In this document: positions 1,393 to 58,943 of the stretch, piece after piece
Layout: every line of letters begins with the position of its first letter
Numbering within the stretch: the stretch's first letter is position 1
Assembly (NCBI GenBank): GCA_963847185.1
Contig: CAWJYV010000008.1
Span: 608,001 to 672,000 of the forward strand
Source of the DNA: an uncultured Methanosarcinaceae archaeon
GTDB lineage: Archaea; Halobacteriota; Methanosarcinia; Methanosarcinales; Methanosarcinaceae
DNA: 64,000 nt
Direction: 5' to 3'
Program-made: the position numbers and the translations under genes
Notes under the pieces: model-generated
What the model saw: the letters and a program-made list of their open reading frames with translations, nothing else
What the model was told of the DNA's origin: nothing
The model's database searches: none

Positions 1393-1428
1393 ACTGGAAA
1401 AGTCAGGATAGATCAGGAGGAAGACCCT

Positions 1429-14398: not shown

Positions 14399-14417
14399 AA
14401 AATATCACATCCCAAAC

Positions 14418-18956: not shown

Positions 18957-18986
18957 AAAATTTATTTGCTTAATTGTGTGGTAAAA

Positions 18987-20015: not shown

Positions 20016-20123
20016 ATCCGGTGGAAGGGGGTAGAGATATTTTTGTGAAAAATTTTTTAAATTGGAAATAAAATATAGAAACATTTAGAAATAAATGTGA
20101 GTAAAAAAATAAATGTGAGTAAA

Positions 20124-22649
20124 ATGGAGAAGTCAGAAAAAATCAGTCAGAATAAAGATGCACGAAAAAAAGATCCGAAAGAGATCCTCGTGCTTGGAGC
20201 TGCTCTCTTAGCTGGCTTCATCATGCGCATGCTCTCGTATGCCGCAGTTACTGCAAACGGGAGCATAACCTTCCCTGGATATGATGATTATTATCATATG
20301 CGGCGCATTCTTTATGCAGTTTCAAGTTTTCCCAATTCACTTAATTTCGATTCTTACCTCAACTATCCTTATGGCTATGAAATCGGATGGCCTCCTTTTT
20401 TTGACCTGTTAGGTGCTCTGCTTGCAAAAATTCTCGGAGGAGGGCAGCCTGATCCGCATACTATCGAATTTGCAGGAGCATTACTGCCGGTACTTCTCGG
20501 AACTCTGACAATAATCCCACTGTATATAGCAGCCAGCTCGGTTTTTGACAAAAAAACCGGACTTCTCGGGGCTTTCATTTTCGCAGTCATTCCAGCCCAT
20601 TTATACGTATCCCGTTTTGGAGCGGCTGACCATCACGTAGCAGAGGCACTCCTATCTACGGCAGCTTATGCATGTTTTATACTTGCCTTGAAAATTGCAA
20701 ATAAAAAAAATCTTTCCTTAAATTCGCTTAAGAACATATCAGAAAAAAGAGACCTTATAACTTCTCTGGTTCTTGCAGCGGTTTCAGGGCTGTTTCTTGC
20801 ACTCCTAATTTACACATGGGTAGGAGCTCCTGTTTTTGTAAGTTTTATCGTATTGTATGCATTCATACAGACCACAATCGATCTCAAAGCTGGAAAAGAA
20901 TCCGATTACCTATTTATCTGCTCAATTACATGCATTGTTTCAACACTTCTGTTTACTATTCCCCTGTCAGCCGGATCAGTGCGACCAGGTCTGGAAATGA
21001 GTGCAGTATACATTTCCTGGTTTCAGGTATTTTATGTGCTCAGCATGCTAGTTGGAGCTTTCCTCCTCTGGGGGCTTTCTGGATCTGTCTCAAAAAAGGC
21101 TCTGGACTGGAAGTTTTATCCTGGAATCTTAATTCTGGTTTTAGGTGCAGGTATTCTCTCTCTGCGAATTTTTTCCGCAGAATCCTACTCTTTTGTGATG
21201 GAAGGTCTGAGATTCTTCACAGGAAAAGGGGAATATATAGGAACCATTTCCGAAGCTGTGCCTTTATTTTTGACAGGACAGGGAAATCTTACTTTCGGAC
21301 CGGTACTGGGAAGTTTTGGACTCTGCTTTATTGCAGCTTTGATAGCTTTCTTCCTGCTCGGACTTGAGTGGAAAGGTGAGAACTCAAAGCCAGAAGGAAT
21401 ATATCTCCTTTTATGGACAGCCTTTTCCGCATATCTCGTTCTTTCGCAGAGGCGTTTCTCGTATCTTTTTTCAGTAAATGTTGCAATTCTTACCTCCTAT
21501 TTACTCTGGATTTTGTTTGAATCGCTCAATTTTGAAACTGAAGTAAGGAACCTGTTAAAACTCGGAAAAAAGAATCAAAATAATAAAACTACTCATCAGG
21601 TTTCAAAAGAAACAAAATTAAAGACAAAGTCAAAAGTAAAAGCAAAGAATGAATCAGCAAAGAATGAATTAACAAAGGATAGGTTACTAAAGAACAGATC
21701 AGGATCGAAAAGTAATCAGAACCCTGATTACTTCAAAATTGTTTCATCACTGGTTCTTTTAGGGCTTGTCTTTGTACCCTGTATATGGGCAGGAGTTGCT
21801 TTTGCAAAAAGTACGAGTTCGATTGATGGAGCCTGGCAGGACTCTCTGCAATGGTTAGAAACTTCCAGCCCCGAGACTTCTTATTACCTTCAGCCTTCTC
21901 AAACTCCAGAGTATGGAGTTCTGAGCTGGTGGGACTATGGAAACTGGATCGTATATCTCTCAAAAAGGCCTGCAGTCTCGAATAATTTCCAGACAGGCGT
22001 TGAAGATTCTGCACATTTTTTCATAACTGACTCAGAACAGGAAGCAAAAGCTATCATCGAAAAACTCAAGGTAAAATATGTGATAACCGATACACTGATG
22101 GCAGGTGGCAAATTTTCGGCTATTTCTGAACTTGCAGGAAAAAACGTCACGGATTATTTTGATGTTCAAACAGTCAAAGGAAAAACGGGTCTTCAGACGG
22201 TTGCAACTCCGAAAAATGCCTTTATGAATACTGAAGTATATAAGCTTCAAGAACTTGACGGCTCAAATCTCGGAAACTTGCGGCTCATTCACGAAAGTGT
22301 AGCAAATAGCACGGAGAATAAAAATAACAAAGATAATACTGTAAAGGTATTCGAATATGTTTCAGGAGCTAGGCTTTCAGGTACTGTAAATCCAAAAGAG
22401 ACTGTTACTGCGACACTTGAATTGCGCTCAAATACAGGTAGAGGATTCACATATCAGAACAAAGCGGCGGCAGATGAAAAAGGTTTATTTGAAATAACCG
22501 TGCCTTATTCGACAGAAAATACTGGAACCGAAACCACTGCTACGTCAACCTATTCCATTAGCTCAGAAGAAAACGTTACAGCAACAGGAATCCAGGTAAA
22601 AGAAAGTGATGTTCTGAACGGGAACACAATAGAAGTAAACAATTCCTGA
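20124..22649 (+). CDS. aglB: Oligosaccharyltransferase AglB (STT3 family)
   Basis: DDYYH, DHH, TISE and WWDYG motifs with many TM helices; the upstream GTG start lies in a short tandem duplication, so ATG 20124 is preferred. Confidence 0.93.
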   Translation: MEKSEKISQNKDARKKDPKEILVLGAALLAGFIMRMLSYAAVTANGSITFPGYDDYYHMRRILYAVSSFPNSLNFDSYLNYPYGYEIGWPPFFDLLGALLAKILGGGQPDPHTIEFAGALLPVLLGTLTIIPLYIAASSVFDKKTGLLGAFIFAVIPAHLYVSRFGAADHHVAEALLSTAAYACFILALKIANKKNLSLNSLKNISEKRDLITSLVLAAVSGLFLALLIYTWVGAPVFVSFIVLYAFIQTTIDLKAGKESDYLFICSITCIVSTLLFTIPLSAGSVRPGLEMSAVYISWFQVFYVLSMLVGAFLLWGLSGSVSKKALDWKFYPGILILVLGAGILSLRIFSAESYSFVMEGLRFFTGKGEYIGTISEAVPLFLTGQGNLTFGPVLGSFGLCFIAALIAFFLLGLEWKGENSKPEGIYLLLWTAFSAYLVLSQRRFSYLFSVNVAILTSYLLWILFESLNFETEVRNLLKLGKKNQNNKTTHQVSKETKLKTKSKVKAKNESAKNELTKDRLLKNRSGSKSNQNPDYFKIVSSLVLLGLVFVPCIWAGVAFAKSTSSIDGAWQDSLQWLETSSPETSYYLQPSQTPEYGVLSWWDYGNWIVYLSKRPAVSNNFQTGVEDSAHFFITDSEQEAKAIIEKLKVKYVITDTLMAGGKFSAISELAGKNVTDYFDVQTVKGKTGLQTVATPKNAFMNTEVYKLQELDGSNLGNLRLIHESVANSTENKNNKDNTVKVFEYVSGARLSGTVNPKETVTATLELRSNTGRGFTYQNKAAADEKGLFEITVPYSTENTGTETTATSTYSISSEENVTATGIQVKESDVLNGNTIEVNNS

Positions 22650-41208: not shown

Positions 41209-41841
41209 TCACCTGCGTAATAGGGAAAAAGCCAATGCAAGAACTGAAACAGAGCCCACAAGTGTGAAAGCTGATGTTGATGCAGACGAAGAAGTGGATC
41301 CTGAAGAGGATGTGGGCGAAGGTTCGGCTTCTGTAACTGGCTGTTCCTTAGAAGTGGGAATTTCACCTTCATAGCGTTCGTTGGAAATAGTGCAGTAGGC
41401 GACTGTAAAACCACCATTAACAAGAGGTTCAGATTCACCATGAGCAAGAATTGTATAATAGATATCTAGAGGTAACGACCCACCTTTCCATCTTTCAGTC
41501 GGTTTTACAGTCCACTCATACTCTCTAGAAGTATTTGCTTCCAAGATATCTCCTTTTGAGTATTCTTCTATTTTTGAAGTTGGACCATTTATAATTTCAA
41601 AAGAATTTCTTTCCATACAAGATAAAGAGACATAGACATCACTTTTTTGATATACTGTGAGATTAATTTTAACTTTAAATGGTTCTTCTACTTTTAAAAA
41701 TGGTTTAGCCATTTCATTTCCAGGTATAATTTTTCCATTGTAATATACATCTATTGAACCGTAAGGAGATTCTGCAAAAGTAATATTTGGTGTAAGCAAA
41801 AAAACTGTAATTAAAAGAAATATACATTTCATTCTCATCAT
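41209..41841 (-). CDS. Sarcinarray/MAST-domain-like surface protein
   Basis: Signal peptide, SPYGSIDVYYNG..KP.LK..EPF motif, S/T linker, C-terminal TM plus RR sorting-like signal. Confidence 0.7.
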   Translation of the reverse strand: MMRMKCIFLLITVFLLTPNITFAESPYGSIDVYYNGKIIPGNEMAKPFLKVEEPFKVKINLTVYQKSDVYVSLSCMERNSFEIINGPTSKIEEYSKGDILEANTSREYEWTVKPTERWKGGSLPLDIYYTILAHGESEPLVNGGFTVAYCTISNERYEGEIPTSKEQPVTEAEPSPTSSSGSTSSSASTSAFTLVGSVSVLALAFSLLRR

Positions 41842-44800
41842 AATTTCCCTCCTAACTCATCCAAAAGAGTTGCATAATCTTCAGATTCTTCACTGGAGCC
41901 TCCAATTTTGTCTCCAACTCCTTTTGGTCCTGGGCCCACTATTGTTGTTGAATAGCCACTAAAATAAAAAGTAATCATTTCATTAGTCCCTAGTCTTGAT
42001 GCGATTCCACTCTTATCTTTTTTAAAAGGATGAAATATTGGTGATTTTTCTCTCACATACCTCTGCCCTTTATGTCCAAAATAAGGCTCTGGAATCACCT
42101 CGTTATCATTGTCAATAACAGTAAACGACTGATACTTTCCTACAATCTCATACGTCCACACATTCACAGTAAAAATCCAGTGCGGAGGCAATATTGGCAG
42201 ACCACATGGAACAGCTGCCATTGTTCGATCCAGTCTTTTTGAAACCAGGGAGACTTTTTCACCGGAATACTTCCTGGATATTTCGGTTTCCATATTTTTC
42301 AGTTCATTATCGAATCTTACAAAACTGGCATCAAGGGCTTTTCCTCTGGTTGTTGTGACTGCGCAGATGCCGTTTGCAACACCAATTCTGACGTCAGTGT
42401 CGACTCTGTTGAGAGCTGCTTCCAGTTCATCGGGATTGACAGGCGGGTTTGAATTTCGGATTTCTGTTTTGATGGCGGCGGAAAGTTCGGATGCGAACTC
42501 GTCTGTTGTAGTTTTTTCGATCAATTCGTCAGCGGAAAGACTCCTGAAGTAGCTGTATATGACTTCACGCAGACTTTCTTCACTGATCCAGCCTGAAATG
42601 ACAGGATTTGATTTTACTTCGGAGACTACCTCTTTAGTTATTTGAGCTATCATTTCCAAAACGTATGTGTACTTTATGCTGTAGAATTCCCGATTAAGGG
42701 AAGTTGTATCCAGGGAAATGTTCTGTTCGCTAAGATTTTGCCTGAGAAGGAAAAACTCGGTATTCAGGTTGGAAATGCTCTGGCTCATCTGATGGGCGGT
42801 TTCGGTTTTTACGTATTCATCGCTTGAAGCTAAGGCGTCTGCAATTTCCTCGGAGATGCCGGTTGTGAAAATACAGGTGTTCCGAACGCCGAGGGGATAA
42901 ATTGTCTTTCCTGTCATGGAATCGGTCCACTCATATTCTCCTCTGAGGTCGAAATCCGGGTCATGATAGAGATAGTTCGGCTTCTGGTCAATAATCAGGG
43001 TCAGGTTTTCGGTCCAGTTGTACTTGCTCTCTGGCTGGCCGGTAACGGTCATTGTTGAAATGATGCCCATGTCTTTTCCAAGTGCTGAAGAAGCCTTTTT
43101 TATTGCAGGGTTATTGAAAAGAGTCATCGAGCCTGAGGTCACGCTGTCAAGTACGCCAGTATCAAGACCTTTTTTCTTAAGTGCACCCAAAATATAGGAA
43201 TTGAGGTTAGAATCCAGCTTACTGTTTTTCTCTTCGATATCTTTGAGCAGCCTGTTGTAGGCTTCATTTTTTGCAATGTAGCGAGCTGAGTCACTTGAAG
43301 TGTAAATTTTTCCTGAAGGATTGAGGTACTGATTTTTATTTACATAGGAATTCCGGTCTGATTCTAGTTTTCGGATAAGTTTTTCGGAAGCCTTGACCTG
43401 CAGATCTGTCGGATCCTGGCCAGGAGAAGCAACCAGAGAGTAATTGAAGGCTGGATTGTCCTTTTTGACAGAATCAAGCATTGAAAGTACTTCTTCTGCC
43501 ATTAACCTGTGTAACCAGGGTGGAATATCACAGCTGACAACATGTCGGGCAAGATATTTTCGGTCAGGATAAGCCCAGAAACTGCTTTCGATCTTTCTGA
43601 AATCCACATACTTATCCCTATATTTGTCGGCAGCATCGGAACAGCAGGGGTCAAACCTGTTTGTTCCGTTAACATAAACATTCGTTTCTCTATATTCCCT
43701 CGCTGAAGAGCCGGCGTAGCTCGATATGCCTCTATAACCACCTGTAGGAGGGCGCCTGTGGTATATTACTGCCAGGTTCTCAGATTCGGTTTCGGTGTGA
43801 GAAGAAGATTCAGAGTCTATGTAACTTTCAGTTTCGGATTTCGAGCCGCTTGAGGTATCATAATGGGTTACAGTCGTATAATTGCCATCCGGCAATTTCT
43901 CCCTGGTATTCCACTTGTAAGTGTAATCATAACTGTAATCAATTTTCCACTTTGTCCTTATTATGTAGGAGATGCCATAACTGACTTCCCAGTCAAAAAT
44001 ATGATCTTCCCTATTCAGGTAACCTTCACTCCTGTCCGTAACTGTGACTCTGTCGTTACTCTTGTAAAAGTAACGAGGCTCGATTCTCACATCACCTATA
44101 CCAGCAGAAAGCAAACTAACCGAAGCTCCTGTAAGAGACCAGCTGACCATTTTCCCTTTTGGAGGATTAATTGAAGGATTTAAAGATTTAGAATAAGAAT
44201 TTGTAACTACATCACTCCAGGGATAAGAAGGTACAAGAGACCCTGTATGCATTCCTGATGAAAAATAGACTGCTTCCCATCTGACAGTATGCCCGTCAAA
44301 ATGAACTGAATCGCTGTTCAGTTCCGCCGTAAGCTTTGAATCCAGTACACTGGGAGAATCAAAACCGTCTCTAACAATCTGCCCCTGTACAGGAGCCGTG
44401 TAAACGCTATCTGTGACGGTATGAATAAGGTCAGGATTTTCTTTTGTCCACACATGGTCATTGAAAGCCCATCCATCGAGAACGTCATCTATGTAGTCAG
44501 AAGCAGAGACGTTTATTTTCGAATATTCAGAGAGTTGGCCAAAAGATGTATTTCCCTGTTCGATAGATTCCGTGATATCTTTTTCAACGTCCATGGAAAA
44601 GGACCTGTTCTTTGAGAGGGAATCGTAAGTGGTTGTAAGGTTTACGCTCCTGTCCTTTTCATAGAGAGACCCTGAAGCATTGAGGTGGGATGAATAATTT
44701 CCGGTATCGGTATTCTTATTTCTGGAGGCAGAAACGTCTTCATAAAATACCTTTCCGTTGTAATAAGTAGTATAAGTGAGAGCCAGGGGATCAACAGAGT

Positions 44801-45947
44801 CAAAAACTCGTTTCTGAGTGTAAAGCGTGGCTCCGTTAATAGAGCTTGAAAGGGCAGGATTTGTTAGAATATTAAGAGGGCCATTTGCATAATGCTGCCA
44901 GGGGCCGTAAATAAAAGTCCTCAAATTTGTTGCTCCAAGCACGATATTCGATGTAGAATCAGGCCCTGAAGAATTTGCAAGATCAATTTCATATTCCCTG
45001 ACAAGCTCCTCGAGCAGAGGTTCCCTCGAAGTCACAAGCGTTGAAAGAGTCGTACTGCCGTTGAATATTTCTCCTGATTGAAGGTTCACAAAGGTATAAT
45101 TTAGAACAGGAATTTCGAAAACATAGTAAATAGTATAATTTTTAGTCGGAGGTGATATTTCCCTCTGCAAAGTTCCCCTTACTTTTCTTATCCTTATCTG
45201 CTCTGGCTTTATATCAGGTTCTACGTTCACGGCATATTGCATGAAAGTATGGCTATTACTCTGGTAATTTGCAGAAAGCAGCCTGTTAAAAGAGTCTGCC
45301 GTAATATCCTTTACAGGGCTTTCTCCAATCATAAACCAGTCTGCGGCTTTCAGTTCATCTCCGTAATGGAGTTCAATAGATGCATATCCAGAAGCTACAG
45401 AATCCGGAATTTTTGCATATTCCTCGAATGAAACTTTTTGAAAAAAACCAGTAGCTCTTCCGTAGTTAAGATTTTTAATTTCATTGCCTGAAGAATCTTT
45501 GACAATTAGAATAACATCTCGTTTTTTCCAGATACTTTCGATTTTGCCCCACACATCTGAGGGCAGATTTATGGAAATTTGAAGTGTATCTCCTCTTTCA
45601 AGATTCTGATTTTTTACGATAACTTGAAACCCGTTTTTAGAAAGCCTTTCAACAGGCGTACCCTCAGGCAGGATTACAGGATGTTCACCCTGCCATTCAA
45701 GGGCTTCCATTCCTGCATAATTAAGGCAGCGAGCAAGATCGGATACAGCAAGGTTGACAGCTGTCTTCCTGGGATCACTTTTATTTGTTGTATAAATCGT
45801 TTCGGCTACTTCACTGTCCATTTTCAGAAGGTAAACTGAAGTAAAAGTTGCGGCAAGTACAAAGAAAATTCCAATTACAGCAAAAGGGATATACGCACCC
45901 GTACTCCGAAAAAAGCACGATAATTCTTCAGAGAACTTTCCAGTCGT
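41838..45947 (-). CDS. Very large exported protein with prepilin-like (class III) N-terminus; probable ACG start at 45947
   Basis: Frame is open 42 codons beyond ATG 45821, encoding TGKFSEELSCFFRSTG-AYIPFAVIGIFFVLAATFTSVYLLK; C-terminal VPCGLPILPPHW.FTVNVW. Confidence 0.75.
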   Translation of the reverse strand, partial: TTGKFSEELSCFFRSTGAYIPFAVIGIFFVLAATFTSVYLLKMDSEVAETIYTTNKSDPRKTAVNLAVSDLARCLNYAGMEALEWQGEHPVILPEGTPVERLSKNGFQVIVKNQNLERGDTLQISINLPSDVWGKIESIWKKRDVILIVKDSSGNEIKNLNYGRATGFFQKVSFEEYAKIPDSVASGYASIELHYGDELKAADWFMIGESPVKDITADSFNRLLSANYQSNSHTFMQYAVNVEPDIKPEQIRIRKVRGTLQREISPPTKNYTIYYVFEIPVLNYTFVNLQSGEIFNGSTTLSTLVTSREPLLEELVREYEIDLANSSGPDSTSNIVLGATNLRTFIYGPWQHYANGPLNILTNPALSSSINGATLYTQKRVFDSVDPLALTYTTYYNGKVFYEDVSASRNKNTDTGNYSSHLNASGSLYEKDRSVNLTTTYDSLSKNRSFSMDVEKDITESIEQGNTSFGQLSEYSKINVSASDYIDDVLDGWAFNDHVWTKENPDLIHTVTDSVYTAPVQGQIVRDGFDSPSVLDSKLTAELNSDSVHFDGHTVRWEAVYFSSGMHTGSLVPSYPWSDVVTNSYSKSLNPSINPPKGKMVSWSLTGASVSLLSAGIGDVRIEPRYFYKSNDRVTVTDRSEGYLNREDHIFDWEVSYGISYIIRTKWKIDYSYDYTYKWNTREKLPDGNYTTVTHYDTSSGSKSETESYIDSESSSHTETESENLAVIYHRRPPTGGYRGISSYAGSSAREYRETNVYVNGTNRFDPCCSDAADKYRDKYVDFRKIESSFWAYPDRKYLARHVVSCDIPPWLHRLMAEEVLSMLDSVKKDNPAFNYSLVASPGQDPTDLQVKASEKLIRKLESDRNSYVNKNQYLNPSGKIYTSSDSARYIAKNEAYNRLLKDIEEKNSKLDSNLNSYILGALKKKGLDTGVLDSVTSGSMTLFNNPAIKKASSALGKDMGIISTMTVTGQPESKYNWTENLTLIIDQKPNYLYHDPDFDLRGEYEWTDSMTGKTIYPLGVRNTCIFTTGISEEIADALASSDEYVKTETAHQMSQSISNLNTEFFLLRQNLSEQNISLDTTSLNREFYSIKYTYVLEMIAQITKEVVSEVKSNPVISGWISEESLREVIYSYFRSLSADELIEKTTTDEFASELSAAIKTEIRNSNPPVNPDELEAALNRVDTDVRIGVANGICAVTTTRGKALDASFVRFDNELKNMETEISRKYSGEKVSLVSKRLDRTMAAVPCGLPILPPHWIFTVNVWTYEIVGKYQSFTVIDNDNEVIPEPYFGHKGQRYVREKSPIFHPFKKDKSGIASRLGTNEMITFYFSGYSTTIVGPGPKGVGDKIGGSSEESEDYATLLDELGGKL

Positions 45948-46434: not shown

Positions 46435-48528
46435 TCAGACATTTAACATCTTCAGCATTTCATTGACTTCAGCAGTCGGAAGCTGGCATTCGTAATTCTG
46501 GCAGACGTATGCTGTAGCTTTTCCCCCTATGGGAACCTGAACTTTCGTATATGTTGCCACTTTAGTAATTTCCGGTTCTCTCCCCTCAGGTCTGAAAACA
46601 AGCACTTTATTAGGAATGAAATATGCCCAGAGTTCTTCAAGCATGTGTTGGGTGTCAGCGGCTTTGATATCTCCAGAGATTACTACTTCATATGAAGGAC
46701 CCAACCTGAAATCAAGGGCTGAAAGGAACTGGGTATATCCTGAAGGCATTTTTCGGAGAAGTTTCGAAAAAGCTCTTTCCAGCCCGGCAGCTATCTCTTC
46801 AAGCTCAGTACTTGCAGTCATTCTTGAAAGACGAAGAAGATTCAACATTTCTATGGAGTTTCCGGAGGGTATGGCTGCATCAGTGAATTCTTTTTGTCTG
46901 AAAATAAGGGACTCGCTGTTATAGGCAGTGAAAAAAAGACCTCCATGCATAGGATCCCAGAAGCGCTCAAGAAGTTCCCGATTAAGAGAAAGAGCTGCTT
47001 TAAGATAGCGCAGTTCGAATCCTGCCTCATAAAGTTCAAGGAGCCCGTGAATCAGGAAGGCATAATCATCTGCAGTTCCAGAGATGCCGGCATTTCCATC
47101 TCTATAACGGTGAAGTAACTGTTTTTTGGAATTGTAAAGAATTTTGAGAATAAAATCAGCGGCTTTTTCAGCAGCTTTCAGATATTTTTCCTCTCCAAAG
47201 GCCTGAAAACCTTTTGCAAAAGCTGCAATCATAAGGCCGTTCCAGTCAGTAAGAATCTTATCGTCTCTTGAAGGTCTTATACGCTTGTTTCGGGCTTCAA
47301 GGAGTTTATTTTTAGCTGTATCTATTCGGCTCTCAATTTCTTCAGTTGGTATTTTGAGTTCGGCAGCAAGAAGTCCAAGAGGCTGGGACATATAAAGCAG
47401 GTTGGTTCCTGTCTTTTTACCCCTTATCTCTTCTTCAAAGTTACCTCCTTCCTTTAAATTGAAAACTTTTATAATTAGTTCGGCGTCCCCGGACTCAAGA
47501 ATATTTTTTATCTCTTTGACGGTCCAGAGGTAATATGCTCCTTCTTCCCCCTCTACATCTGCATCTTCCCCACAATAAAATCCTCCTTCCGGAGAAGTCA
47601 GGTCTCTTAGAACGTAATTAAAAATTCCTTCTGCCGTTTCTTTATAGAGCTCTTTTCCGGTAACCTGATAGGCTTCAGTGTATGCAATCGCAAGAAGTGC
47701 CTGATCATATAACATTTTTTCAAAATGAGGGACAATCCACATTCTATCCGTAGAGTAGCGGTGGAAACCCGAACCAAGATGGTCATGGATTCCTCCCCTA
47801 TACATATTTTGCAGAGTATGTTCTACCATATGGAGAGCTTCGGGGTTTCCACTGCGCCTCCAGTAGCGAAGTAAAAAGGAGATTTTGTGAGGAGTAGGGA
47901 ATTTAGGGGCATTCTCAAACCCTCCATATGCAGTGTCAAAAGAGTTCAGTATTTCATCGTAAGCCTCCTCAATTATTGTTTCTCCTATCTCTTCTCCTGC
48001 AGTTTGTGAGACCATATTCTGGATCGTAGAGGTGATTTTCTCAGCCGAATCAAGCACCTCTTCATGTTGCCGATACCAGATTTCCCCTATTCTTGGCACA
48101 AGTTCGAGCATTCCTGTCTGGTTGAAACGAGAATTTTTTGGGATATAGGTTCCTGCAAAGAAAGGTTTTTTATTCGGGGTCAGGATAATATTAAGTGGCC
48201 ATCCACCTCTTCCAAGAATTATCTGGCAGACTGTCATGTAAACGTTATCGATATCTGGACGTTCTTCTCTATCTACTTTTATGCTAACAAAAGCTCTGTT
48301 CATAAGCTCTGCCACTTCTTCATCCTCAAAAGACTCATGCGCCATTACGTGACACCAGTGACAGGTTGAATAACCAATTGAGAGAAAAATAGGTTTGTTT
48401 TCGTTCCTTGCTTTTTCAAAAGCCTCTTCTCCCCATGGATACCAGTCTACAGGATTATATGCATGCTGCAAGAGATACGGACTCTTTTCATTGATCAGGC
48501 GGTTAGGTTTTCTATGCTCTTTTCCCAG
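46435..48528 (-). CDS. YyaL/SPATA20-family thioredoxin-domain protein; probable CTG start at 48528
   Basis: [42 protein letters not shown] and [11 protein letters not shown] motifs. Confidence 0.9.
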
Positions 48529-49084: not shown

Positions 49085-49996
49085 TTAAATTTTTTCCCCA
49101 TGCTTTCCTATGCTCAGGAAGTCAACAACCGTTGAAATTCTATATGAATGCTCCTGTTTTCTTTCAGCTTTTCTGGCTTGATAAACCCTTACAGAGCGCA
49201 AAAGATCGATTTTTCTAAATTCTGGCCAGAAAGGAGCGCAGAAATATGTTGCACATTCGCTTCCGTTAGCCTGCCAGGGTAGGAAATTAGAAACTCTCTC
49301 ATCACCGCCAGTGCGGATGATTAGATCCACATTCGGAACCGAAACTCCCGGAGCAGGATAGAGATGTTTCGAAATAAGATTTTCATCCACTTCTTCAAGG
49401 GAAATTTTCCCACTGGATACACAACCCGCAATATCCCGGACAGCATGAATAATATCTTGCCTGCCACCATAGGCAATAGCCACATTGAGATAGAATTTCC
49501 TGTAATGTTCTGTAGCTTTTTCTATCCTATCAATCGACTCATTTAGAAAAGCGGGCAATTTTGATCTATCGCCTATAACCCGGACTTGCATTTCTTTCTC
49601 ATGAGTTCTCGTATCGGAATAAAGCTTCTTGAATTTTTCGTCAATTAGACTGAAGAGTCCGCCAACTTCTTCTTCGGAACGCTGGAAATTTTCAGTAGAA
49701 AAGGCATAGAGAGTAAGTTGTTTCACTCCGATTTCATAACACCACTCGATCACCTTTTCGGTAACTTCTGCTCCCATCGCATGCCCGAAGCTTTTAGCCT
49801 TTCCCATCTGTCCTGCATACCTGCGGTTTCCGTCCATAATAACAGCTATGTGATGAGGGATTTCCGAACTCAGAATCTCTTTTTCGAGTATTCCCTCATA
49901 TCTTTGATAGAATACACTAAAAGTTCTATTTTTTAAGAAACGGAGTCCCGCCCAGAAGACTCCTCTTCGTGATAAATTAATTTTTAATTTCGTCAC
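49085..49996 (-). CDS. uppS: Polyprenyl (cis-prenyl) diphosphate synthase
   Basis: [21 protein letters not shown] and [15 protein letters not shown] motifs. Confidence 0.93.
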
Positions 49997-51260: not shown

Positions 51261-51983
51261 ATGAATTTATTGTGGAAAGACATGTGCCCTATAGAGTTAA
51301 AATTACCATCTCCACTTCCTCTTGAAAATATACCTGATTTATGGAAACAAAATGAGATTCTAATTTTTCTGATTGACCTTAACAGTTATAACATTCTGAG
51401 TACTGAGCACCTTGACAAGACCGAAAAAGAGCATCTGGAAACATTAAAAACAAACTATTTTAAAAAAAGATATATAGTCTCCAGGATGGTTCTAAAAAAT
51501 ATTGTGATGTATATCCAGGGCGATATATTAAAAGGACAGTCTCTTTCTGATATAGGCACATATAATGATGAATACGGAAAAGTTTGCATACGGAACCATA
51601 GAGAGTTGAACATATGCATTTCATACACAGGGAACATTGCTTCCCTCGCAATATCGAAAGTTGAAGTCGGGATTGATATAGAGCTTAAAAGATTGATCCC
51701 CCCTGGAAATATGTCAAAGTATCTGTGCATTACAGCCTCAGAAGCAGAAGATTTCGGAAACGAGCCTGACTTATTGAGAATATGGACTCTCAAAGAAGCA
51801 TACTGTAAATTTTCGAACAGAACTATGTTATCTACTCTTATCAGAAAACTGGATCTAAGTGGTGTGTTTCATTCAAGCTTTACTTTGAACGACAAATATA
51901 TACTTTCTGTAATTAGCGATACAAACTCACATTCCCTCAACATAAGTTGTCTGTCGAAGATAGAATTATATGAAGATTCTTAA
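51261..51983 (+). CDS. Sfp-type 4'-phosphopantetheinyl transferase
   Basis: YGK, ISYT (SH/SY position), VGIDIE and WTLKEAYCK motifs. Confidence 0.85.
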   Translation: MNLLWKDMCPIELKLPSPLPLENIPDLWKQNEILIFLIDLNSYNILSTEHLDKTEKEHLETLKTNYFKKRYIVSRMVLKNIVMYIQGDILKGQSLSDIGTYNDEYGKVCIRNHRELNICISYTGNIASLAISKVEVGIDIELKRLIPPGNMSKYLCITASEAEDFGNEPDLLRIWTLKEAYCKFSNRTMLSTLIRKLDLSGVFHSSFTLNDKYILSVISDTNSHSLNISCLSKIELYEDS

Positions 51984-52247: not shown

Positions 52248-52493
52248 ATGGAACCGATAAAAGATTGTATAATTGATTATTTGAAGGCTAATTCTTTTAT
52301 GGATAAGGACGCTCACGTCAGTGACGTTGACTCTCTTACTCAGAATGGCATTGTAGATTCTATTGGGCTGCTTGAACTTATGGATTATATCTGTGAAAAA
52401 TATTCTATCGAAATTCCAGAAGACATGCTAACTCCAGAGAATTTTGACACACTACAGGGAATTACCAATATGATAGGTAAACTGGCGAAGTGA
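52248..52493 (+). CDS. Acyl/peptidyl carrier protein
   Basis: 81-aa acidic protein with GIVDSIGLLEL (Ppant Ser) and IEIPEDMLTPENFDT. Confidence 0.92.
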   Translation: MEPIKDCIIDYLKANSFMDKDAHVSDVDSLTQNGIVDSIGLLELMDYICEKYSIEIPEDMLTPENFDTLQGITNMIGKLAK

Positions 52494-52509: not shown

Positions 52510-53988
52510 ATGCGACTTGATGCGTATATTACTGAATACGCCAGAGAAACTCCTCAAAATATTGCCCTGGAAGAGGGCAAAAATTCAATTTCCTATAGCT
52601 GTCTTGATAAAGACATAAATATCATTGTTTCGCCCCTGATGAATTTTAAACAGTGCAGATTTGCAGTACTGGCAGAATCTGGCATACAGTATGTAAAATT
52701 ACTTATGGCAGTATATAGGTCAGAAAATATCGCAATACCTCTGCCGATAGAATTTCCTAAGTTCAGTCTTGAGCGAATACTTGATTCTGCATATGTCAAA
52801 AATATAATTACGACTGAGACGCAATACTCAAGGTTTGGGGAGATTTTTTTTGAGCGTTTTGGAACAGTGATCATTGTTTCGGGAGATGCTTCAGTAAAGG
52901 TTCTAAGAAATAAAATCGAAGTTGAAAATAATAACCCGGAACTGAGGCTGGTCCTGTACACGTCGGGTACAACAGGCACCCCAAAAGGGGTAATGTTGAG
53001 TGACAGAAACCTTGCAGTAAATGGAGAATCAATAATAAAAGTTATTGGAATCACTTCTAAAGATAAAGGGGCCCTGATAATATCCCCACATCATGCTTTC
53101 GGGAATTCTATAATCAATTCCCACCTGATGGCTGGAGGCTCTATCCGAATCGGAAACATGAATTTTATAGACTCGGTTTTCAATCTTATTGAGTCAAAAG
53201 TATCAATTTTCTACGGAGTGCCAAGCACCTATCGTATGCTTCTCAAGTATCCGGACAGATTCAAAAAAGCCTTTAGTAGTGTCAGGACCGCTGCTTCCGC
53301 AGGTGGAGGCATGGACAGGACAATTGTAAAGGAAATTCGGGGCCTGGTTCCTGGAATTGAGATTCTACCAATGTACGGGCAAACAGAAGCTACTGCAAGG
53401 CTTGCCTATGTGCCAGCAGAAGATGTTGATAAATTCTTAGACACAATAGGAAAAGCTATTCCTGGAGTTACTCTGGACGTTTTTGATTCTGAGTGCAGGC
53501 CAGTTGGGTCAAACATAACAGGGGAACTGGTCGCCAGAGGAGACAATATCCTGTTAGGCTACCTTGACGATGAAATCGCTACTAAAAAGAGGATCATAAA
53601 CGGCTGGCTTCATACAGGAGATCTCGCACAAAAGCTGCCAAATGGGTATATAAGGCTGCTGGGGCGCAAGGATGACCTTATAAAAATTGGGGACCATCGG
53701 GTGAATCCCAGAGAAATTGAGAGGCTCATTGAAGAGAATAATGATGTTTCCAAGGTTTTCGTTGTGCCTGTATCCCACGAACTTATGGGAACTGCAATCA
53801 GCCTTATGGTCATACCTGCAGAAAAGACAGAACTTGAGAGTCTATTTGCCTTCTGCAGGAAGAGCCTGCCAGCTTACCTGTGCCCGAGAGAAATACTGTT
53901 CATCGATCATCTTCCATTGAGCGAGAACGGGAAAATATCCAATCGATCCATAATAGAGGAATACAATCATGTCAAAGCTAGTGTGTAA
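52510..53988 (+). CDS. Stand-alone adenylate-forming (ANL) enzyme / acyl-ACP ligase
   Basis: YTSGTTGTPKG, MYGQTEA, LHTGDL, GRKDDLIK..HRVNPREIE and LPLSENGKI motifs. Confidence 0.92.
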   Translation: MRLDAYITEYARETPQNIALEEGKNSISYSCLDKDINIIVSPLMNFKQCRFAVLAESGIQYVKLLMAVYRSENIAIPLPIEFPKFSLERILDSAYVKNIITTETQYSRFGEIFFERFGTVIIVSGDASVKVLRNKIEVENNNPELRLVLYTSGTTGTPKGVMLSDRNLAVNGESIIKVIGITSKDKGALIISPHHAFGNSIINSHLMAGGSIRIGNMNFIDSVFNLIESKVSIFYGVPSTYRMLLKYPDRFKKAFSSVRTAASAGGGMDRTIVKEIRGLVPGIEILPMYGQTEATARLAYVPAEDVDKFLDTIGKAIPGVTLDVFDSECRPVGSNITGELVARGDNILLGYLDDEIATKKRIINGWLHTGDLAQKLPNGYIRLLGRKDDLIKIGDHRVNPREIERLIEENNDVSKVFVVPVSHELMGTAISLMVIPAEKTELESLFAFCRKSLPAYLCPREILFIDHLPLSENGKISNRSIIEEYNHVKASV

Positions 53989-55021
53989 AAAGTGTGTTCT
54001 GGATTCGGATATTCCAGGTATAACTTTTAATAAGGAAACAGGGCTATGCCATTTCTGTGAGACATATGCTCCCCTTTCTGTTCAGGAAAAAAATGAATAT
54101 CTGACAAAAATTGAGGAGCTTTTTAAGGAATACCGGGGGAAAGGTACCTATGATGTAATTTATGCCCTTTCCGGGGGGAAAGATTCTTCGTACACACTTT
54201 ACAAGCTCAAAAAAGACTATCCCTTCCTGAAGGTGCTGGCTGTCCAGTTTCAAAATGGATTCACCTCCGAAGGTGCGGTAAAAAATGCAAAAAAGATGTG
54301 TAAGATAACAGGCTCCGATTATTTTCAGCTGACTATGGAAAAGGAAATTCTTTATGAGACTTTCCGGAAGGCGGCAGAATCTTATGATGCATTTCCGAAG
54401 TTTGCTAAATACCGGGCGAGTGATATCTGCAATACCTGTATTACTATCATCAAACAGAAACTGATAGAACAGGCAATTGTTCACAAAGCACCTTTTATTG
54501 TATTTGCTTTTACAGGCGGACAGTCTCCAAACCCAATCATTAACCTTTCACCCAACTTTATACAGTGGTCCAGAAGCCTGTTTGAGAAACAGCTTGAAAA
54601 AATAGGTATTAACGATAAAGATGAACTCTTCCTCATCAAAAAAGAGATCGTTGAAAATATGGGGGACTCTGCCCTAAGTATTCTGCATCCTCTCTGTCTA
54701 TGGGAATACAGTGAAGATAAAGTAGTGGATACACTTTTGAAGATTGGATGGGAGCAGCCTAATATTAATGACAGTAATTCAACCAATTGTACCTTGAACG
54801 CTTTCGCATGCTATAACCACCTGGAAAAATACGGGTTCCATCCATACGCCTTTGATACGGCAGGACTTGTGCGAAGCGGGGAAATGTCCAGGGAAGAAGG
54901 GTTTGAAAAAATCAATCAGGAATTATCAAGACCATTAATAGAAGAAGCTGCAAAGAAGCTTAAAATGAATGTTAAGAGCTTGAATGTAAAAGACTCTCAT
55001 AAAATACTAACGACAATTTGA
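53969..55021 (+). CDS. Cys-rich N-type ATP pyrophosphatase (AANH; WbuX- or YcfA/CtaC-like)
   Basis: CKKC..CHFC N-terminus, SGGKDS PP-loop, CNTC, STNC and HPY..LVRSG.MSREE; overlaps the ANL gene by 20 nt. Confidence 0.8.
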   Translation: MSKLVCKKCVLDSDIPGITFNKETGLCHFCETYAPLSVQEKNEYLTKIEELFKEYRGKGTYDVIYALSGGKDSSYTLYKLKKDYPFLKVLAVQFQNGFTSEGAVKNAKKMCKITGSDYFQLTMEKEILYETFRKAAESYDAFPKFAKYRASDICNTCITIIKQKLIEQAIVHKAPFIVFAFTGGQSPNPIINLSPNFIQWSRSLFEKQLEKIGINDKDELFLIKKEIVENMGDSALSILHPLCLWEYSEDKVVDTLLKIGWEQPNINDSNSTNCTLNAFACYNHLEKYGFHPYAFDTAGLVRSGEMSREEGFEKINQELSRPLIEEAAKKLKMNVKSLNVKDSHKILTTI

Positions 55022-55096: not shown

Positions 55097-56089
55097 ATGC
55101 AGGTAGCAAAAGAAATGAACATAAACATAATGGAAGAGCTGACTAGAGACATTGGAAGTGTAGCTCTAAATCTAAGAAGTTTTATTAAAGACCAAATCGT
55201 AGGTTTTAAGAAAAAAGGAGCAGTGTTAGGAGTATCCGGCGGAATTGATTCGGCTGTAGCTCTTACCCTTTGCGTGCAGGAGTTGGGGAAGGAAAATGTT
55301 TACGGGATCCTGCTGCCTGAGAAAGAGTCGGCTCCTTCAAGCAAAGTTCTGGGTGCAGAAATTTGCGAAAGTCTTGGTGTAGAATATGAGGAAGTTCCTA
55401 TCTCTCCAATTCTTAAATCACTTAACATTTATAAGAAGAAAGATGACCTTATAAAAAGGGTCTGTCCGGAGTATAACCCCAGGATACATAAAACCTCGCT
55501 GGTTCTTCCTGATTTCCTTGAGCAGGGCCTTTTGAACGTTCCTTACATTCGATTGATGAAAGGTGATGAAACTGTTGGGAAGTACAGGTTGAAGGCAAAT
55601 GACTATCTGGAACTTATCGGGTTACAGGGTGTCAAGCAGAGGTCCAGAATGATGGTTCAGTATATGTATGCCGAACAGATGAACTATGTAGTTTGCGGCA
55701 CAACAAATAAAACCGAGCTGGTCCTGGGTCAGTTTGTGAAATACGGAGACGGAGGTGTAGATCTCGAACCCCTTGCTGATTGTTATAAGACACAGATCTA
55801 CGCTCTTGGTAGACATTTAAAAGTCAACGAAGAGATTATGAAGCGTCCTCCAAGTGCCGATACCTGGAGCCATTATACAACTGACCAGGAATTCTACTGG
55901 CGGATGCCTATAAATATTATGGATCAGTTGCTGTATTCATTTGAACATAAATTACCTTGTAGTGTAATTGAAAAGAATACAGGCCTCCCCAGAGACAAGA
56001 TAGAAAAAACTAGAAGGCACCTCGGAAGAATAAAGAGTACAACAGAATATATTAGGTCCACTCCTCCGGTTTATTATCTTGACAGATAA
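55097..56089 (+). CDS. nadE: NadE-like amide synthetase (divergent NH3-dependent NAD synthetase paralogue)
   Basis: GVSGGIDS, GTTNKTE, FVKYGDGG, YKTQIY and PPSAD motifs; large central insertion. Confidence 0.75.
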   Translation: MQVAKEMNINIMEELTRDIGSVALNLRSFIKDQIVGFKKKGAVLGVSGGIDSAVALTLCVQELGKENVYGILLPEKESAPSSKVLGAEICESLGVEYEEVPISPILKSLNIYKKKDDLIKRVCPEYNPRIHKTSLVLPDFLEQGLLNVPYIRLMKGDETVGKYRLKANDYLELIGLQGVKQRSRMMVQYMYAEQMNYVVCGTTNKTELVLGQFVKYGDGGVDLEPLADCYKTQIYALGRHLKVNEEIMKRPPSADTWSHYTTDQEFYWRMPINIMDQLLYSFEHKLPCSVIEKNTGLPRDKIEKTRRHLGRIKSTTEYIRSTPPVYYLDR

Positions 56090-56305
56090 GCTGTAGAAGA
56101 CGAATCTTGAAGGTGAAGTAATAAATCGTAGAGATTTACAGCTTTTCCTTCAAAAAATAACTTTTTTAAGCTAACATTCCGAGTTGAATCGGAGAAAAAA
56201 CGGTTTTAGATTATTTTTATACTTGTTTTGGAATGCAGAAAAGACAAAATTAATTTAACAAGATTGTATAATTAACAATACTGTACAAAATATTAAAGTG
56301 TGATT

Positions 56306-57439
56306 ATGAATACCAAGGTTTCTATTGTTCGCTGTAGCGATTATTCAAAAGCAAAAGATGCAATTAGAGAGTCGCTTAATTTGATAGGCGGCTTTGAGAA
56401 GATCATATCTCCTGGAAGCCGCGTACTGCTCAAACCCAATGTACTTGCCGCTCGGCCTCCAGAGGATGCTGTCACAACTCATCCGGCAGTAGTTTCTGCA
56501 ATGTGTGAACTGATTTTGGAGATTGGCGGAATTCCGGTTATAGGAGATGGGTCAGGAATTGTAGGGTCAGGATCTACAAACACTTCTAAAGCGTTTAAAA
56601 TATCGGGAATTGAAGATGTCGCGTCCAGTTGCGAGGTAGAATTAATCAACTTTGAGACCTCTGGTTATATTGAAGTCGATGTTCCCAATGCCAGGGAATT
56701 CCAGCGTCTGCACATAGCAAAAGCCGTACTCGAAGCAGATGTAATAATTTCACTTCCAAAGCTCAAGACCCATGAGCTCACACTCTACACGGGAGCTGTA
56801 AAAAATTTCTTTGGTACTATTCCTCAGAAAAACAGAAAACAGGCTCATTTCCTGGAAGACCGTGATCGCTTTGGAAATGCAGTTGTCGATATATACTCAA
56901 TCGTCAAACCTCATCTCGCAGTCATGGACGGGGTGCTTGGAATGGAGGGCAACGGCCCTTCAAACGGTGCGCCTGTTTTTGCAGGTGTGATCATGGCAAG
57001 CTATGACTGTGTATCCCTGGATATTGCGGCTTCCGAACTCATAGGATTTGACCCCTTGAAGGTCCCTACAAATAAAGCTGCTCTCTCAAGAGGGTTTGGA
57101 ACCGAACATCCCGAGATTGTAGGAGTACCACTGGACAGTTTAAAGGTCAAGTTTAAAGAGCCAGAAGGTGGAATTACTGCCCATGTGCCACATTTCCTTA
57201 TGAGGGTCCTCCGAAAGCAGTTAACTGTAAAACCTTTTATCAACACTTCAACCTGCGCCTTTTGTAAAGCCTGCGTTTTAAACTGTTCAGCACATGCTAT
57301 TGAGGAAGCGGGAAAAACACTTAAAATTAACCAAAAAAAATGTATCCAGTGCTATTGTTGTCGGGAACTTTGTCCCAATGATGCAGTAGAAATAAGGAAA
57401 TCCTTTATATTGAGACTTGTAACTAGAATTAAAAGCTAA
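56306..57439 (+). CDS. DUF362 protein with C-terminal 2x[4Fe-4S] ferredoxin domain
   Basis: LLKPN, TTHP, PKLKTH, GAVKN and GMEGNGP motifs; CAFCKAC...C and CIQCYCCRELCP. Confidence 0.88.
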   Translation: MNTKVSIVRCSDYSKAKDAIRESLNLIGGFEKIISPGSRVLLKPNVLAARPPEDAVTTHPAVVSAMCELILEIGGIPVIGDGSGIVGSGSTNTSKAFKISGIEDVASSCEVELINFETSGYIEVDVPNAREFQRLHIAKAVLEADVIISLPKLKTHELTLYTGAVKNFFGTIPQKNRKQAHFLEDRDRFGNAVVDIYSIVKPHLAVMDGVLGMEGNGPSNGAPVFAGVIMASYDCVSLDIAASELIGFDPLKVPTNKAALSRGFGTEHPEIVGVPLDSLKVKFKEPEGGITAHVPHFLMRVLRKQLTVKPFINTSTCAFCKACVLNCSAHAIEEAGKTLKINQKKCIQCYCCRELCPNDAVEIRKSFILRLVTRIKS

Positions 57440-57564: not shown

Positions 57565-58098
57565 ATGAGTGAAGTAATATCTAACAGAGATAAAGTAACT
57601 TTTAATGAGGTAGCCGATCATTATCATAGTAACAAACTCCTTTTTGGACTAAAATATTTTAAGAACTGGGTTCTGGAAAGACTGGCTTCATGCGTTCCTG
57701 TTCCTACCTGGAGGGTAAAATTTCACAGAATGAGAGGAGTTAATCTCGGGAAGAATGTTTATGTAGGTTATGATGTTGTTTTTGATCGCATTCATCCTGA
57801 ATTAATTACGGTAGGAGATTATTCAGAAATTGGGGATAGATGCATCCTCTCTGCACATTCGAGAGGCAGTTTAACTACAAGACAGGCTTATCCGAGAAGT
57901 ATGGAACCTATCATAATTGGACGTGGAGTATCTGTTAATCCTGGATGCATAATTACTCAAGGGGTCGAGATAGGAGATAATTCCATAATAGGAATAGGAT
58001 CAGTAGTTACCCGTGATATTTCTCCAAATAGTCTTGCTCTTGGCTACCCTGCCAAAGTTGTTAAAAAACTTGAGGGTGTAGGCGAGCTTCAAACCTGA
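57565..58098 (+). CDS. Hexapeptide-repeat (left-handed beta-helix) acyltransferase
   Basis: GVNLGKNVYVG, LSAH, GVEIGDNSIIGIGSVVTRD and GYPAKVVK motifs. Confidence 0.88.
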   Translation: MSEVISNRDKVTFNEVADHYHSNKLLFGLKYFKNWVLERLASCVPVPTWRVKFHRMRGVNLGKNVYVGYDVVFDRIHPELITVGDYSEIGDRCILSAHSRGSLTTRQAYPRSMEPIIIGRGVSVNPGCIITQGVEIGDNSIIGIGSVVTRDISPNSLALGYPAKVVKKLEGVGELQT

Positions 58099-58358
58099 TT
58101 TTGATAATCCTATTATCTCTTATAAGGGGATTTATAATCTTTATTTCCCTTCTTTATTTTCCCTTCTTTATTTTTCCTTCAATTTTAAAGTCAAATTTTT
58201 TCTGATTTCAATGAGAGGAAATCTTGATCGTATATTTCTATTCTTAGCGTCTAATTCCTGATTCCTGAGCACTTGTTCAAAGAAAGACTAAGGAAAAAGA
58301 AGAATAATAGGATTGGAAAAACAGGAATAAGTCTAAAAAATGAGACAAAGAAAAGAGA

Positions 58359-58943
58359 TCATTTATCGGATTTGTATTTGAATTCGAAACCAAGCTTATT
58401 CAGAGCAAAAAGTGCCATCATTATCACAAAGAAAACAGCAAATACCGATACAAAAGACTTTAAGAGATAGAGCATGAGCCCATTTTCTTGAAAACCCGAA
58501 TCCATCAAAGAGGACAATTTTATTGTTCCATCGTATATCGGATATAAGTAATTAATACCGTTTTCACTAACGTCATCAAGTAAGAGATGAGTCAGGAAAG
58601 CCGCTTCTCCAAATAGACCCAAATATATTGCTTTGTCAAGTTTCCGGTATGCAAGATAACCCACAAGCGTTCCAAATATTATTGCAGAGGAACTAAATAA
58701 TAATGAATGCGTTGGGATCGGGCCAGCCCAGCAATGCCCTAAATTACCGTTTACGAATATATTATAAACGGCCATAATATCCGGAAATAGAGTGCATAAA
58801 CTGCCTATAAACAGAAGCAATAGGAGTGAGGGCATGTCCCTTAATGAGAGCTCCCCGCGAAAAAGAGATCTTATAACCGCATAGACAGCTACTGCGCTGA
58901 TGCAGAACACAAAGAATAAAACATGCGCAACTGGATAGGGCAT
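58359..58943 (-). CDS. Membrane metal-dependent hydrolase (YdjM-like)
   Basis: N-terminal H, PD, THS and THLLLD motifs in TM helices. Confidence 0.8.
   Translation of the reverse strand: MPYPVAHVLFFVFCISAVAVYAVIRSLFRGELSLRDMPSLLLLLFIGSLCTLFPDIMAVYNIFVNGNLGHCWAGPIPTHSLLFSSSAIIFGTLVGYLAYRKLDKAIYLGLFGEAAFLTHLLLDDVSENGINYLYPIYDGTIKLSSLMDSGFQENGLMLYLLKSFVSVFAVFFVIMMALFALNKLGFEFKYKSDK

Follow-up and report, generated by a model that had tools for sequence, protein, structure and literature searches.

Which reaction is carried out by a PP-loop ATPase that resembles a sugar amidotransferase in fold and a sulfur insertase in its cysteines, and that is encoded among thiotemplate genes? The question is raised by an AANH-superfamily protein encoded at positions 53969 to 55021 of a 64,000-nucleotide stretch from an uncultured Methanosarcinaceae archaeon (GenBank assembly GCA_963847185.1, contig CAWJYV010000008.1, positions 608,001 to 672,000 of the forward strand), hereafter called the window. 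We give an even chance to the reading that this protein is a CtaC-like, cluster-dependent thioamide synthetase that would act on a carrier-bound amide independently of YcaO. A first-pass annotation of the same DNA had suggested carrier-bound thioamide or thiocarboxylate chemistry. As a hypothesis this was supported by the tests reported here, which are sequence tests. Between its two products, a neighboring NadE-like gene points to the conversion of an amide to a thioamide rather than to a thiocarboxylate.

Fold and cysteine triad of the AANH protein

Every motif that the first-pass annotation had read in the protein was found where it had been placed. Four N-terminal cysteines (C6 at 53984-53986, C9, C27 and C30, ending at 54058) are followed by the PP-loop SGGKDS (residues 68-73, 54170-54187), by a CxxC motif (C154-N-T-C157, 54428-54439) and by a distal S-T-N-C274, whose Cys codon occupies 54788-54790. 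Three further cysteines, C111, C243 and C281, are not conserved.

Pfam produced only PP-loop matches to the protein, all of them below threshold. The NCBIfam model TIGR03573 ('WbuX, N-acetyl sugar amidotransferase') matched over the full length (residues 5-338 on model positions 3-339 of 344), although its score of 126.6 bits was under the cut-off of 203.2. The AlphaFold2 model, computed with 57 relatives as input, had a mean pLDDT of 94.7. Its best structural match was the Legionella N-acetyl sugar amidotransferase (NASAT) 8WEX, the one NASAT with a solved structure (VIA Z 23.5, rmsd 3.7, 322 residues aligned), with a TM score of 0.67-0.69 in Foldseek and a profile match of E 1.4e-24, and the next matches were NcsA (Z 13.1) and TtuA (Z 12.6). 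The NASAT family is defined by the PP-loop together with a tetracysteine pattern, CXXCXn[GN]XCXXC, which binds zinc in 8WEX (PMC10607449). The arrangement C6xxC9-x15-G25-L-C27xxC30 conforms to this pattern. According to the model, the AANH protein is predicted to keep the NASAT (WbuX) fold and a putative structural zinc ribbon. Since the N-terminal tetracysteine is accounted for as that ribbon, only C154, C157 and C274 are left as candidate ligands of a cluster. The full-length fold, the tetracysteine pattern, the PP-loop and the C-terminal domain are thus common to the AANH protein and the NASATs (WbuX, WbpG, LpNASAT 8WEX). The triad C154/C157/C274 is what separates it from 8WEX, where the CxxC falls in a gap and an Asp stands in place of the third cysteine, and from 20 of the 21 archaeal NASATs scoring above the TIGR03573 cut-off.

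A family search over 1.84 billion cluster representatives returned 2746 50%-identity clusters at E<=1e-3. The query was aligned with 116 of the best 150 50%-identity cluster representatives, the other 34 having been dropped as fragments shorter than 290 residues or as long proteins that were not segmented. Of the resulting 117 rows, 116 have Cys at every one of positions 154, 157 and 274, and the sole exception (P0237) is without all three. In a 57-sequence alignment, whose members are 23-48% identical to the query, the invariant columns are the four zinc-motif cysteines, S68, G69, G70, D72 and S73 of the PP-loop, and C154, C157 and C274; there are no others, and this alignment contains no fourth invariant Cys or His, near-invariant columns included. 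Judged by these alignments, the cysteine layout of the protein is far beyond chance.

The same fold would also serve a different chemistry, in which a NASAT-type amidotransferase uses a nitrogen nucleophile to form an amidine or an amide on a carrier-bound unit or a sugar, the triad being a second structural metal site. Despite the fact that a NASAT is the closest solved structure and that the NASAT model matches full length, we find this unlikely. In a TIGR03573 survey of 301 Halobacteriota genomes, the triad was present at just one (L139) of the 21 loci above the cut-off. Nine loci fell below it: seven with the triad, among them the locus of the window and its same-genus orthologue, one without, and one truncated beside a transposase. 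We scanned the 1.5-kb flanks of 23 of the surveyed loci, leaving out L132, L134 and L136 (close kin of L129/L131), the broken loci L140 and L141, and L149/L150, which are the window's own locus and an orthologue. Seven of the 16 triad-less loci have both a class-I glutaminase (HisH) gene and a HisF-like gene within that distance and one more has HisF; other triad-less loci adjoin NeuB. Neither HisH nor HisF was found in these flanks at any of the seven triad-bearing loci. Because HisH and HisF stand beside triad-less loci and never beside the triad-bearing ones examined, the ammonia-delivery partner and the triad appear, on this genomic evidence, to be alternatives. The first-pass annotation had stated that WbuX-type enzymes usually travel with HisH and HisF, which held in this archaeal sample, and that no such pair adjoins the AANH gene, which was borne out by Pfam and NCBIfam scans of the 14 open reading frames (ORFs) around it, none of which is HisH- or HisF-like. 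The nitrogen chemistry is therefore opposed by the sampled canonical NASATs, which are without the triad and in many cases beside HisH/HisF. Furthermore, three ligands without a conserved fourth would be unusual for a zinc site.

The triad state was also mapped on a FastTree phylogeny of 144 rows, rooted on the TtuA-like protein of the same genome and used for coarse placement only, as it is a quick tree with long branches. CtaC, WbuX, PseA and YcfA are not among its rows. Three changes of the triad state suffice. The AANH protein belongs to a clade of seven rows (support 99) that also holds a ligase-fused form and the representatives closest to it, and that lies apart from the triad-less archaeal NASATs, several of which are linked to HisH/HisF. 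Its sub-threshold TIGR03573 score and its position in the triad-bearing part of the tree do not put it firmly with WbuX and PseA, a grouping that the first-pass annotation had named as contrary to its proposal.

Two alignments link the CxxC to known cluster ligands. In a profile search the family motif 'iCnsC' aligned onto 'pCsfC' of NcsA, whose solved structure (6scy) includes its [4Fe-4S] cluster, and C154 and C157 aligned onto C138 and C141 of the genome's own TtuA-like protein with an hhalign probability of 98.9%. The structural alignment (model 41-301 to TtuA 33-233) spans C274, in terms of ranges and not of residue pairs. In TtuA, as described, three cysteines hold a [4Fe-4S] cluster whose free iron carries the sulfur (PMC7138817). 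A CxxC with a distal Cys is the three-cysteine layout described for both TtuA (PMC7138817) and CtaC (PMC6772006), in agreement with the sulfur-insertase-like layout that had been noted at first pass. In two relatives (P0235 and P0236) the AANH protein is fused to a C-terminal NifU-like iron-sulfur (Fe-S) scaffold domain. By analogy with TtuA, NcsA and CtaC, the most likely role of C154, C157 and C274 is to hold a [4Fe-4S] cluster with one free iron. Both the NifU fusions, which point to Fe-S, and the positional homology of the CxxC with the NcsA/TtuA ligands speak against a nitrogen nucleophile. A complex prediction of the AANH protein with the carrier protein and a 4Fe-4S cluster scored 0.09 against a mark of 0.32 and carries no weight either way.

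The protein is nevertheless distinct from the insertases of this type. Like TtuA, NcsA and TtcA it has a PP-loop, an N-terminal zinc ribbon and a CxxC at the homologous position; unlike them it has another C-terminal half and no C-terminal zinc finger. The TtuA/NcsA-like gene of the same genome (L002) is present in 61/61 genomes of the class, whereas the AANH orthologue is present in 19/121 genomes of the order. LarE of M. maripaludis (8cnz/8cp4), a [4Fe-4S] PP-loop sulfur insertase that acts on a small-molecule carboxylate, is a structural neighbor as well (Z 11.9), but it is NadE-like in size and fold and lacks the NASAT C-terminal domain and the zinc ribbon. The profile match of the AANH family to LarE is limited to the PP-loop region.

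The carrier-protein cassette

The AANH gene is part of a series of forward-strand genes in the window, in which the acyl carrier protein (ACP), ligase, AANH and NadE-like genes form a compact cassette:

51261..51983, + strand: 4'-phosphopantetheinyl transferase (PPTase), Sfp/AcpT-like, 240 aa; Pfam ACPS 26.5 bits (cut-off 25)
52248..52493, + strand: stand-alone ACP, 81 aa; Pfam PP-binding E 6e-4, NCBIfam AmcB-like ACP E 4.5e-11
52510..53988, + strand: AMP-forming acyl ligase (ANL family), 492 aa; Pfam AMP-binding 174.5 bits and AMP-binding_C
53969..55021, + strand: AANH-superfamily PP-loop ATPase of NASAT fold, 350 aa; single open frame
55097..56089, + strand: NadE-like PP-loop amide synthase of PRK00876 type, 330 aa; NF002048 472.9 bits (cut-off 313)
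56300..57439, + strand: DUF362 protein with a C-terminal 2x[4Fe-4S] ferredoxin domain, 379 aa; Pfam DUF362 209 bits and Fer4
57565..58098, + strand: hexapeptide-repeat acyltransferase, 177 aa; Pfam Hexapep 38 bits

The PPTase also matches an AusB-like PPTase of NCBIfam (E 4.7e-12), and presumably it primes the carrier protein, which the AMP-ligase presumably loads. The phosphopantetheine serine of the ACP is Ser38 (52359-52361) in the motif GIVDSIG, and D37 and S38 are invariant across 28 cassette ACPs, archaeal and bacterial. The top NCBIfam matches of the ligase are fatty-acyl ligases and TIGR03098 (exosortase-associated ligase), each below its own cut-off. In the stretch after the TSGTTG motif, where amino-acid-activating domains carry 'FDxS', the ligase reads 'SPHHAFGNS', a weak hint that its substrate is not an alpha-amino acid. 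The PP-loop of the NadE-like protein is SGGIDS (55235-55252). The DUF362-ferredoxin and the hexapeptide acyltransferase are possible accessories of the cassette, the latter for example in a transfer step.

The four cassette genes occur in the same order at 11/11 Methanosarcinaceae loci, with a PPTase homologue upstream at nine of them. The DUF362-ferredoxin follows the cassette at six of the 11 and at 2/58 loci of other phyla, and the hexapeptide acyltransferase is found at five and at 9/58, respectively. The window derives from a Methanosarcina: proteins orthologous to the AANH protein at 70-98% identity are named after M. acetivorans, M. thermophila, M. siciliae and Methanolobus. One genome of the same genus (G108; loci L025 and L026) has two copies of all four genes, the second of them with no PPTase or DUF362-ferredoxin within 15 kb, and another locus (L031) has a split PPTase, encoded by two separate ORFs (4255-4545 and 4549-5001). 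By composition there was no signal of recent horizontal transfer, as the GC content of the cassette is 0.39 and that of the window 0.397.

The NadE-like gene could be taken for a housekeeping NAD synthase, but this was ruled out: the canonical NadE (292 bits on PF02540), of which it is a paralogue, is on another contig of the same genome, and PRK00876 follows the distribution of the cassette without exception. Of 121 Methanosarcinales genomes, the same 19 have both the AANH orthologue and PRK00876, always side by side, and neither was found in the remaining 102. One further Methanosarcinales genome has a 28%-identical AANH paralogue and no PRK00876. Among 14 control genomes, the PRK00876 model (NF002048) had a match in M. 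acetivorans only, and a homologue search with the NadE-like protein returned close Methanosarcina orthologues only. The 'NAD(+) synthase' PRK00876 is probably a mis-annotated, pathway-specific amide synthase.

When genomes were scanned with an alignment of 13 relatives of bacterial type, 80 loci were recovered, which are the best matches to a single clade. They belong to Zixibacteria, Krumholzibacteriota, Omnitrophota, Nitrospirota, Thermodesulfobacteriota, Planctomycetota and Methanomassiliicoccales, among other groups. The cassette was counted at the 58 of them that have at least 4 kb upstream. An ACP was found at 55 and a ligase at 53; the amide-synthase gene is NadE-like at 31 and glutamine-dependent and AsnB-like at 21, with one or the other at 49. 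The bacterial cassettes lie within exopolysaccharide/exosortase loci, among genes for EpsH, a Wzz-kinase, a flippase, glycosyltransferases, a DUF3473 deacetylase, and exosortase-type hydrolases and ligase. Two things here lend some credit to the nitrogen chemistry: amidino and amide decorations are known on polysaccharides, and the cassette carries ammonia-using enzymes of its own, NadE-like or AsnB-like. In the window, no exopolysaccharide or exosortase genes adjoin the cassette, and no homologues were found of the genes that accompany the bacterial cassettes (two unnamed ORF families downstream, an unnamed upstream family and a GNAT family). The scanned cassettes (L041-L120) often precede an unnamed family of ~350-aa ORFs without a Pfam match (L115:10280-11335, L054:9003-10058) or, alternatively, an unnamed ~280-aa family (L082:9040-9852).

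Gene fusions also tie the AANH protein to the carrier-protein machinery. Two relatives (P0127 and P0138) are ligase-AANH fusion proteins. In all seven of the relatives of nonribosomal peptide synthetase (NRPS) size that were scanned, the AANH domain sits between AMP-binding and AMP-binding_C and is followed by a PP-binding domain. Such NRPS modules with an embedded, triad-bearing AANH domain measure 1200-2700 aa (P0225, P0231, P0234, P0252, P0254, P0263 and P0268). Eight NRPS-embedded rows (P0225, P0228, P0231, P0234, P0244, P0252, P0263 and P0265) form one clade with a support of 100, P0254 and P0268 being outside the tree. The embedded AANH would be an 'interrupted A domain' thioamidating in cis; in the literature searched we found no description of interrupted adenylation domains linked to thioamides, only a general review. 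On an uncultured Eubacteriales contig (L101:2298-4259, +), a 654-aa frame at the contig end joins a NadE-like protein to the N-terminal 276 residues of an AANH protein, which may be either a genuine fusion or an error of assembly.

These fusions bear on the possibility that sulfur is inserted off the carrier, on a free or nucleotide-sugar-linked acetamido or carboxyl group, while the ACP and the ligase serve a separate step. Triad-bearing paralogues without an ACP do exist in polysaccharide loci (L139, L142-L145 and L147), beside glycosyltransferases, a flippase and a FemAB-like gene, and 8WEX, whose fold the AANH protein is predicted to share, is described as having a wide sugar-type pocket (PMC10607449). 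We nonetheless judge this very improbable, as the 3' end of the ligase gene and the start of the AANH gene share 20 nt, ligase-AANH fusions exist, AANH domains are inserted in NRPS A-domains beside T domains, and an ACP is nearly always present in the cassettes of other phyla. The carrier-bound action put forward at first pass thus gains support from synteny and gene fusions, as far as gene arrangement can indicate it. One of the ACP-less paralogues (L142, Methanosarcinaceae genome G112, 186.9 bits on TIGR03573) is a second triad-bearing copy that adjoins YdjM-like and hexapeptide transferase genes; the same two families trail the cassette in the window (57565-58943).

The remainder of the window contains several other loci. 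At 241-3958 (+) a nitrogenase-component-1-like gene, a NifH-like gene and a CobB/CobQ-type amidotransferase gene lie in a row, which we take to resemble CfbC/D/B of coenzyme F430 biosynthesis. A surface-glycan locus at 8390-22646 encodes an acyltransferase-3, several GT4 glycosyltransferases, a methyltransferase, a Wzm/Wzt ABC exporter, two GDP-mannose 4,6-dehydratase-like proteins and the oligosaccharyltransferase AglB (20079-22646). This glycosylation locus is ~30 kb from the cassette, with housekeeping genes between them. A 1327-aa protein (41838-45821, -) has DUF7286 at its C-terminus as its sole match. It is followed by a 678-aa thioredoxin-DsbH (DUF255) protein with an epimerase-like alpha-barrel tail (46435-48471, -) and, after that gene, by a cis-prenyltransferase (UppS, 49085-49996).

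Proposed chemistry and the competing readings

The closest functional precedent is CtaC (Ccel_3258) of Ruminiclostridium cellulolyticum, the Fe-S AANH enzyme of closthioamide biosynthesis. It is reported to need D77 and S78, to be impaired by C154A, C157A or C284A, and to thioamidate substrates on the carrier protein CtaE only, with ATP and sulfide; about 75% of 100 CtaC homologues are near thiotemplate genes (PMC6772006). By residue number, as opposed to alignment, D72/S73 and C154/C157/C274 of the AANH protein have the same order and near-identical spacing. None of 271 proteins checked by position has D77, S78, C154, C157 and C284 together, and the nearest spacing is that of P0131 and P0162 (PP-loop Ser 73, CxxC 157, third Cys 285 or 283). 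R. cellulolyticum is not among the 80 loci of the genome scan. Like CtaC (PMC6772006), the AANH protein comes from an anaerobic host, has thiotemplate genes for a PPTase, a carrier protein and an adenylating enzyme around its own gene, and has no sulfur-mobilizing gene in its cluster. Unlike CtaC, it is archaeal and belongs to a minimal cassette of four to five genes with one ACP, one ligase and no peptide-assembling enzymes. The amide that is thionated also differs, as it would probably be a primary carboxamide from the NadE-like enzyme in place of the peptide bond used by CtaC.

The carrier-bound thioamide can be written as a short series of steps. Primed by the PPTase, the 81-aa carrier protein would receive from the AMP-ligase a carboxylic acid, probably not an alpha-amino acid and possibly a dicarboxylate, as a thioester on the holo-ACP. 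The NadE-like enzyme (AsnB-like in many bacteria) would then turn a free carboxylate of the tethered unit into a carboxamide. Finally, the AANH protein would adenylate the amide oxygen with ATP, and cluster-bound sulfide would displace AMP to give a carrier-bound thioamide with no YcaO involved. This four-step proposal follows from the fact that NadE- and AsnB-type enzymes both make carboxamides and interchange in the cassette, and that amide oxygens are the target of this kind of AANH enzyme, the product being an amidine for NASAT, where a sugar acetamido group becomes acetamidino, and a thioamide for CtaC. The analysis establishes the motifs with their conservation, the fold, the conserved cassette, the gene fusions and the distance from NASATs paired with HisH/HisF. 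That a cluster is bound and that sulfur is the nucleophile is inferred, and so are the sequence of the steps, the substrate and the fate of the product.

The amide-forming partner would also suit another outcome. The two enzymes could together act as a nitrile synthetase, in the manner of the half-reactions of QueC: the NadE/AsnB-like enzyme would make the carboxamide and the AANH protein would adenylate it and eliminate AMP to leave a carrier-bound nitrile. QueC yields a nitrile, and a partner of this type is near-constant, being present at 49/58 loci of other phyla and at 11/11 Methanosarcinaceae loci. The Pfam model QueC (PF06508) matches weakly, with 17.4 bits for the AANH protein of the window in its PP-loop region only (residues 63-124) and 24-34 bits for the NRPS-embedded relatives. 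The nitrile synthetase ArtA (9lei) is among the structural neighbors (Z 12.4), and among the ESM Atlas neighbors, which are PP-loop clusters either unnamed or auto-named, the nearest one is auto-named 'QueC family'. However, the score of the window protein is below the Pfam cut-off of 22, and the metal site of QueC is a four-cysteine zinc site elsewhere in the protein. Formation of a nitrile would also leave the NifU fusions and the alignment of the CxxC with sulfur-insertase ligands unexplained. Hence, we regard it as improbable.

Several observations weigh against the thioamide itself. The likeness to CtaC rests on published residue numbers and not on a sequence alignment. The hhalign match to the TtuA-like protein stops near residue 190, short of C274, and in the structural comparison NcsA and TtuA (Z 12.6-13.1) are level with generic PP-loop enzymes (Z 11-12.4), the difference being within about 1 Z. 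Two triad-bearing proteins exceed the TIGR03573 cut-off, P0235 (236.9 bits) and L139 (247 bits), and the subfamilies are close. As P0235 has the triad and yet passes, the NCBI WbuX model fails to separate the triad-bearing from the triad-less subfamily. The bacterial cassettes are set in exopolysaccharide/exosortase loci, and we know of no thioamide sugar substituent. No sulfur-carrier, rhodanese or cysteine desulfurase gene was found among the annotated recurrent neighbor families (22 cluster representatives scanned). In addition, the 80 loci of the genome scan, being best matches to the one clade, are not independent of each other.

A broader proposal would be that the four-gene cassette as such (carrier protein, acyl-ACP ligase, NadE/AsnB-type amide synthase and [4Fe-4S] NASAT-fold AANH) builds a primary thioamide (thiocarboxamide) acyl unit on its carrier protein by a route that is widespread, undescribed and YcaO-free. 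This we put forward as tentative and rather doubtful. If true, the route would be a stand-alone operon in Methanosarcinaceae and a part of exosortase/exopolysaccharide loci in many anaerobic bacterial phyla, it would imply either that cell-surface polymers are decorated with sulfur-containing groups or that a small thioamide metabolite binds metal, and peptides would be thioamidated in cis by the AANH domains embedded in NRPS adenylation domains.

Implications for Methanosarcina and related anaerobes

Thioamides are rare in biology, and we know of just one in methanogens, a thioglycine that YcaO-TfuA installs in methyl-coenzyme M reductase. In the literature searched, bacterial CtaC was the only characterized carrier-protein-dependent thioamide synthetase, nothing was found that ties WbuX-like proteins to Fe-S or thioamide AANH enzymes to Methanosarcina, and none of the titles and abstracts listed on the acyl carrier protein and phosphopantetheinyl transferase of Methanosarcina matched the cluster itself. 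What is new here is a triad-bearing AANH protein of NASAT fold whose minimal ACP cassette includes an amide synthase of its own, archaeal and widespread in anaerobes, where the CtaC type is known from bacteria. Its product is probably a sulfur-containing (thioamide) building block that has not been described in archaea.

If this is true, a large subfamily now named 'N-acetyl sugar amidotransferase', 'TilS/MesJ', 'asparagine synthase-related' or 'hypothetical' would consist of Fe-S sulfur insertases, and the name 'NAD synthase' for PRK00876 would probably be wrong. The exopolysaccharide loci of many uncultured anaerobes would encode overlooked sulfur chemistry. The small size of the cassette, four to five genes, and the presence of PRK00876 in M. 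acetivorans, which is genetically tractable, make the hypothesis directly testable. Only a few archaea are reported to have an ACP and its processing enzymes, acquired from bacteria (PMC3533463). In Methanosarcina, these rare archaeal ACP and PPTase genes would gain a role, and the organism would have a second, unrelated route to thioamides.

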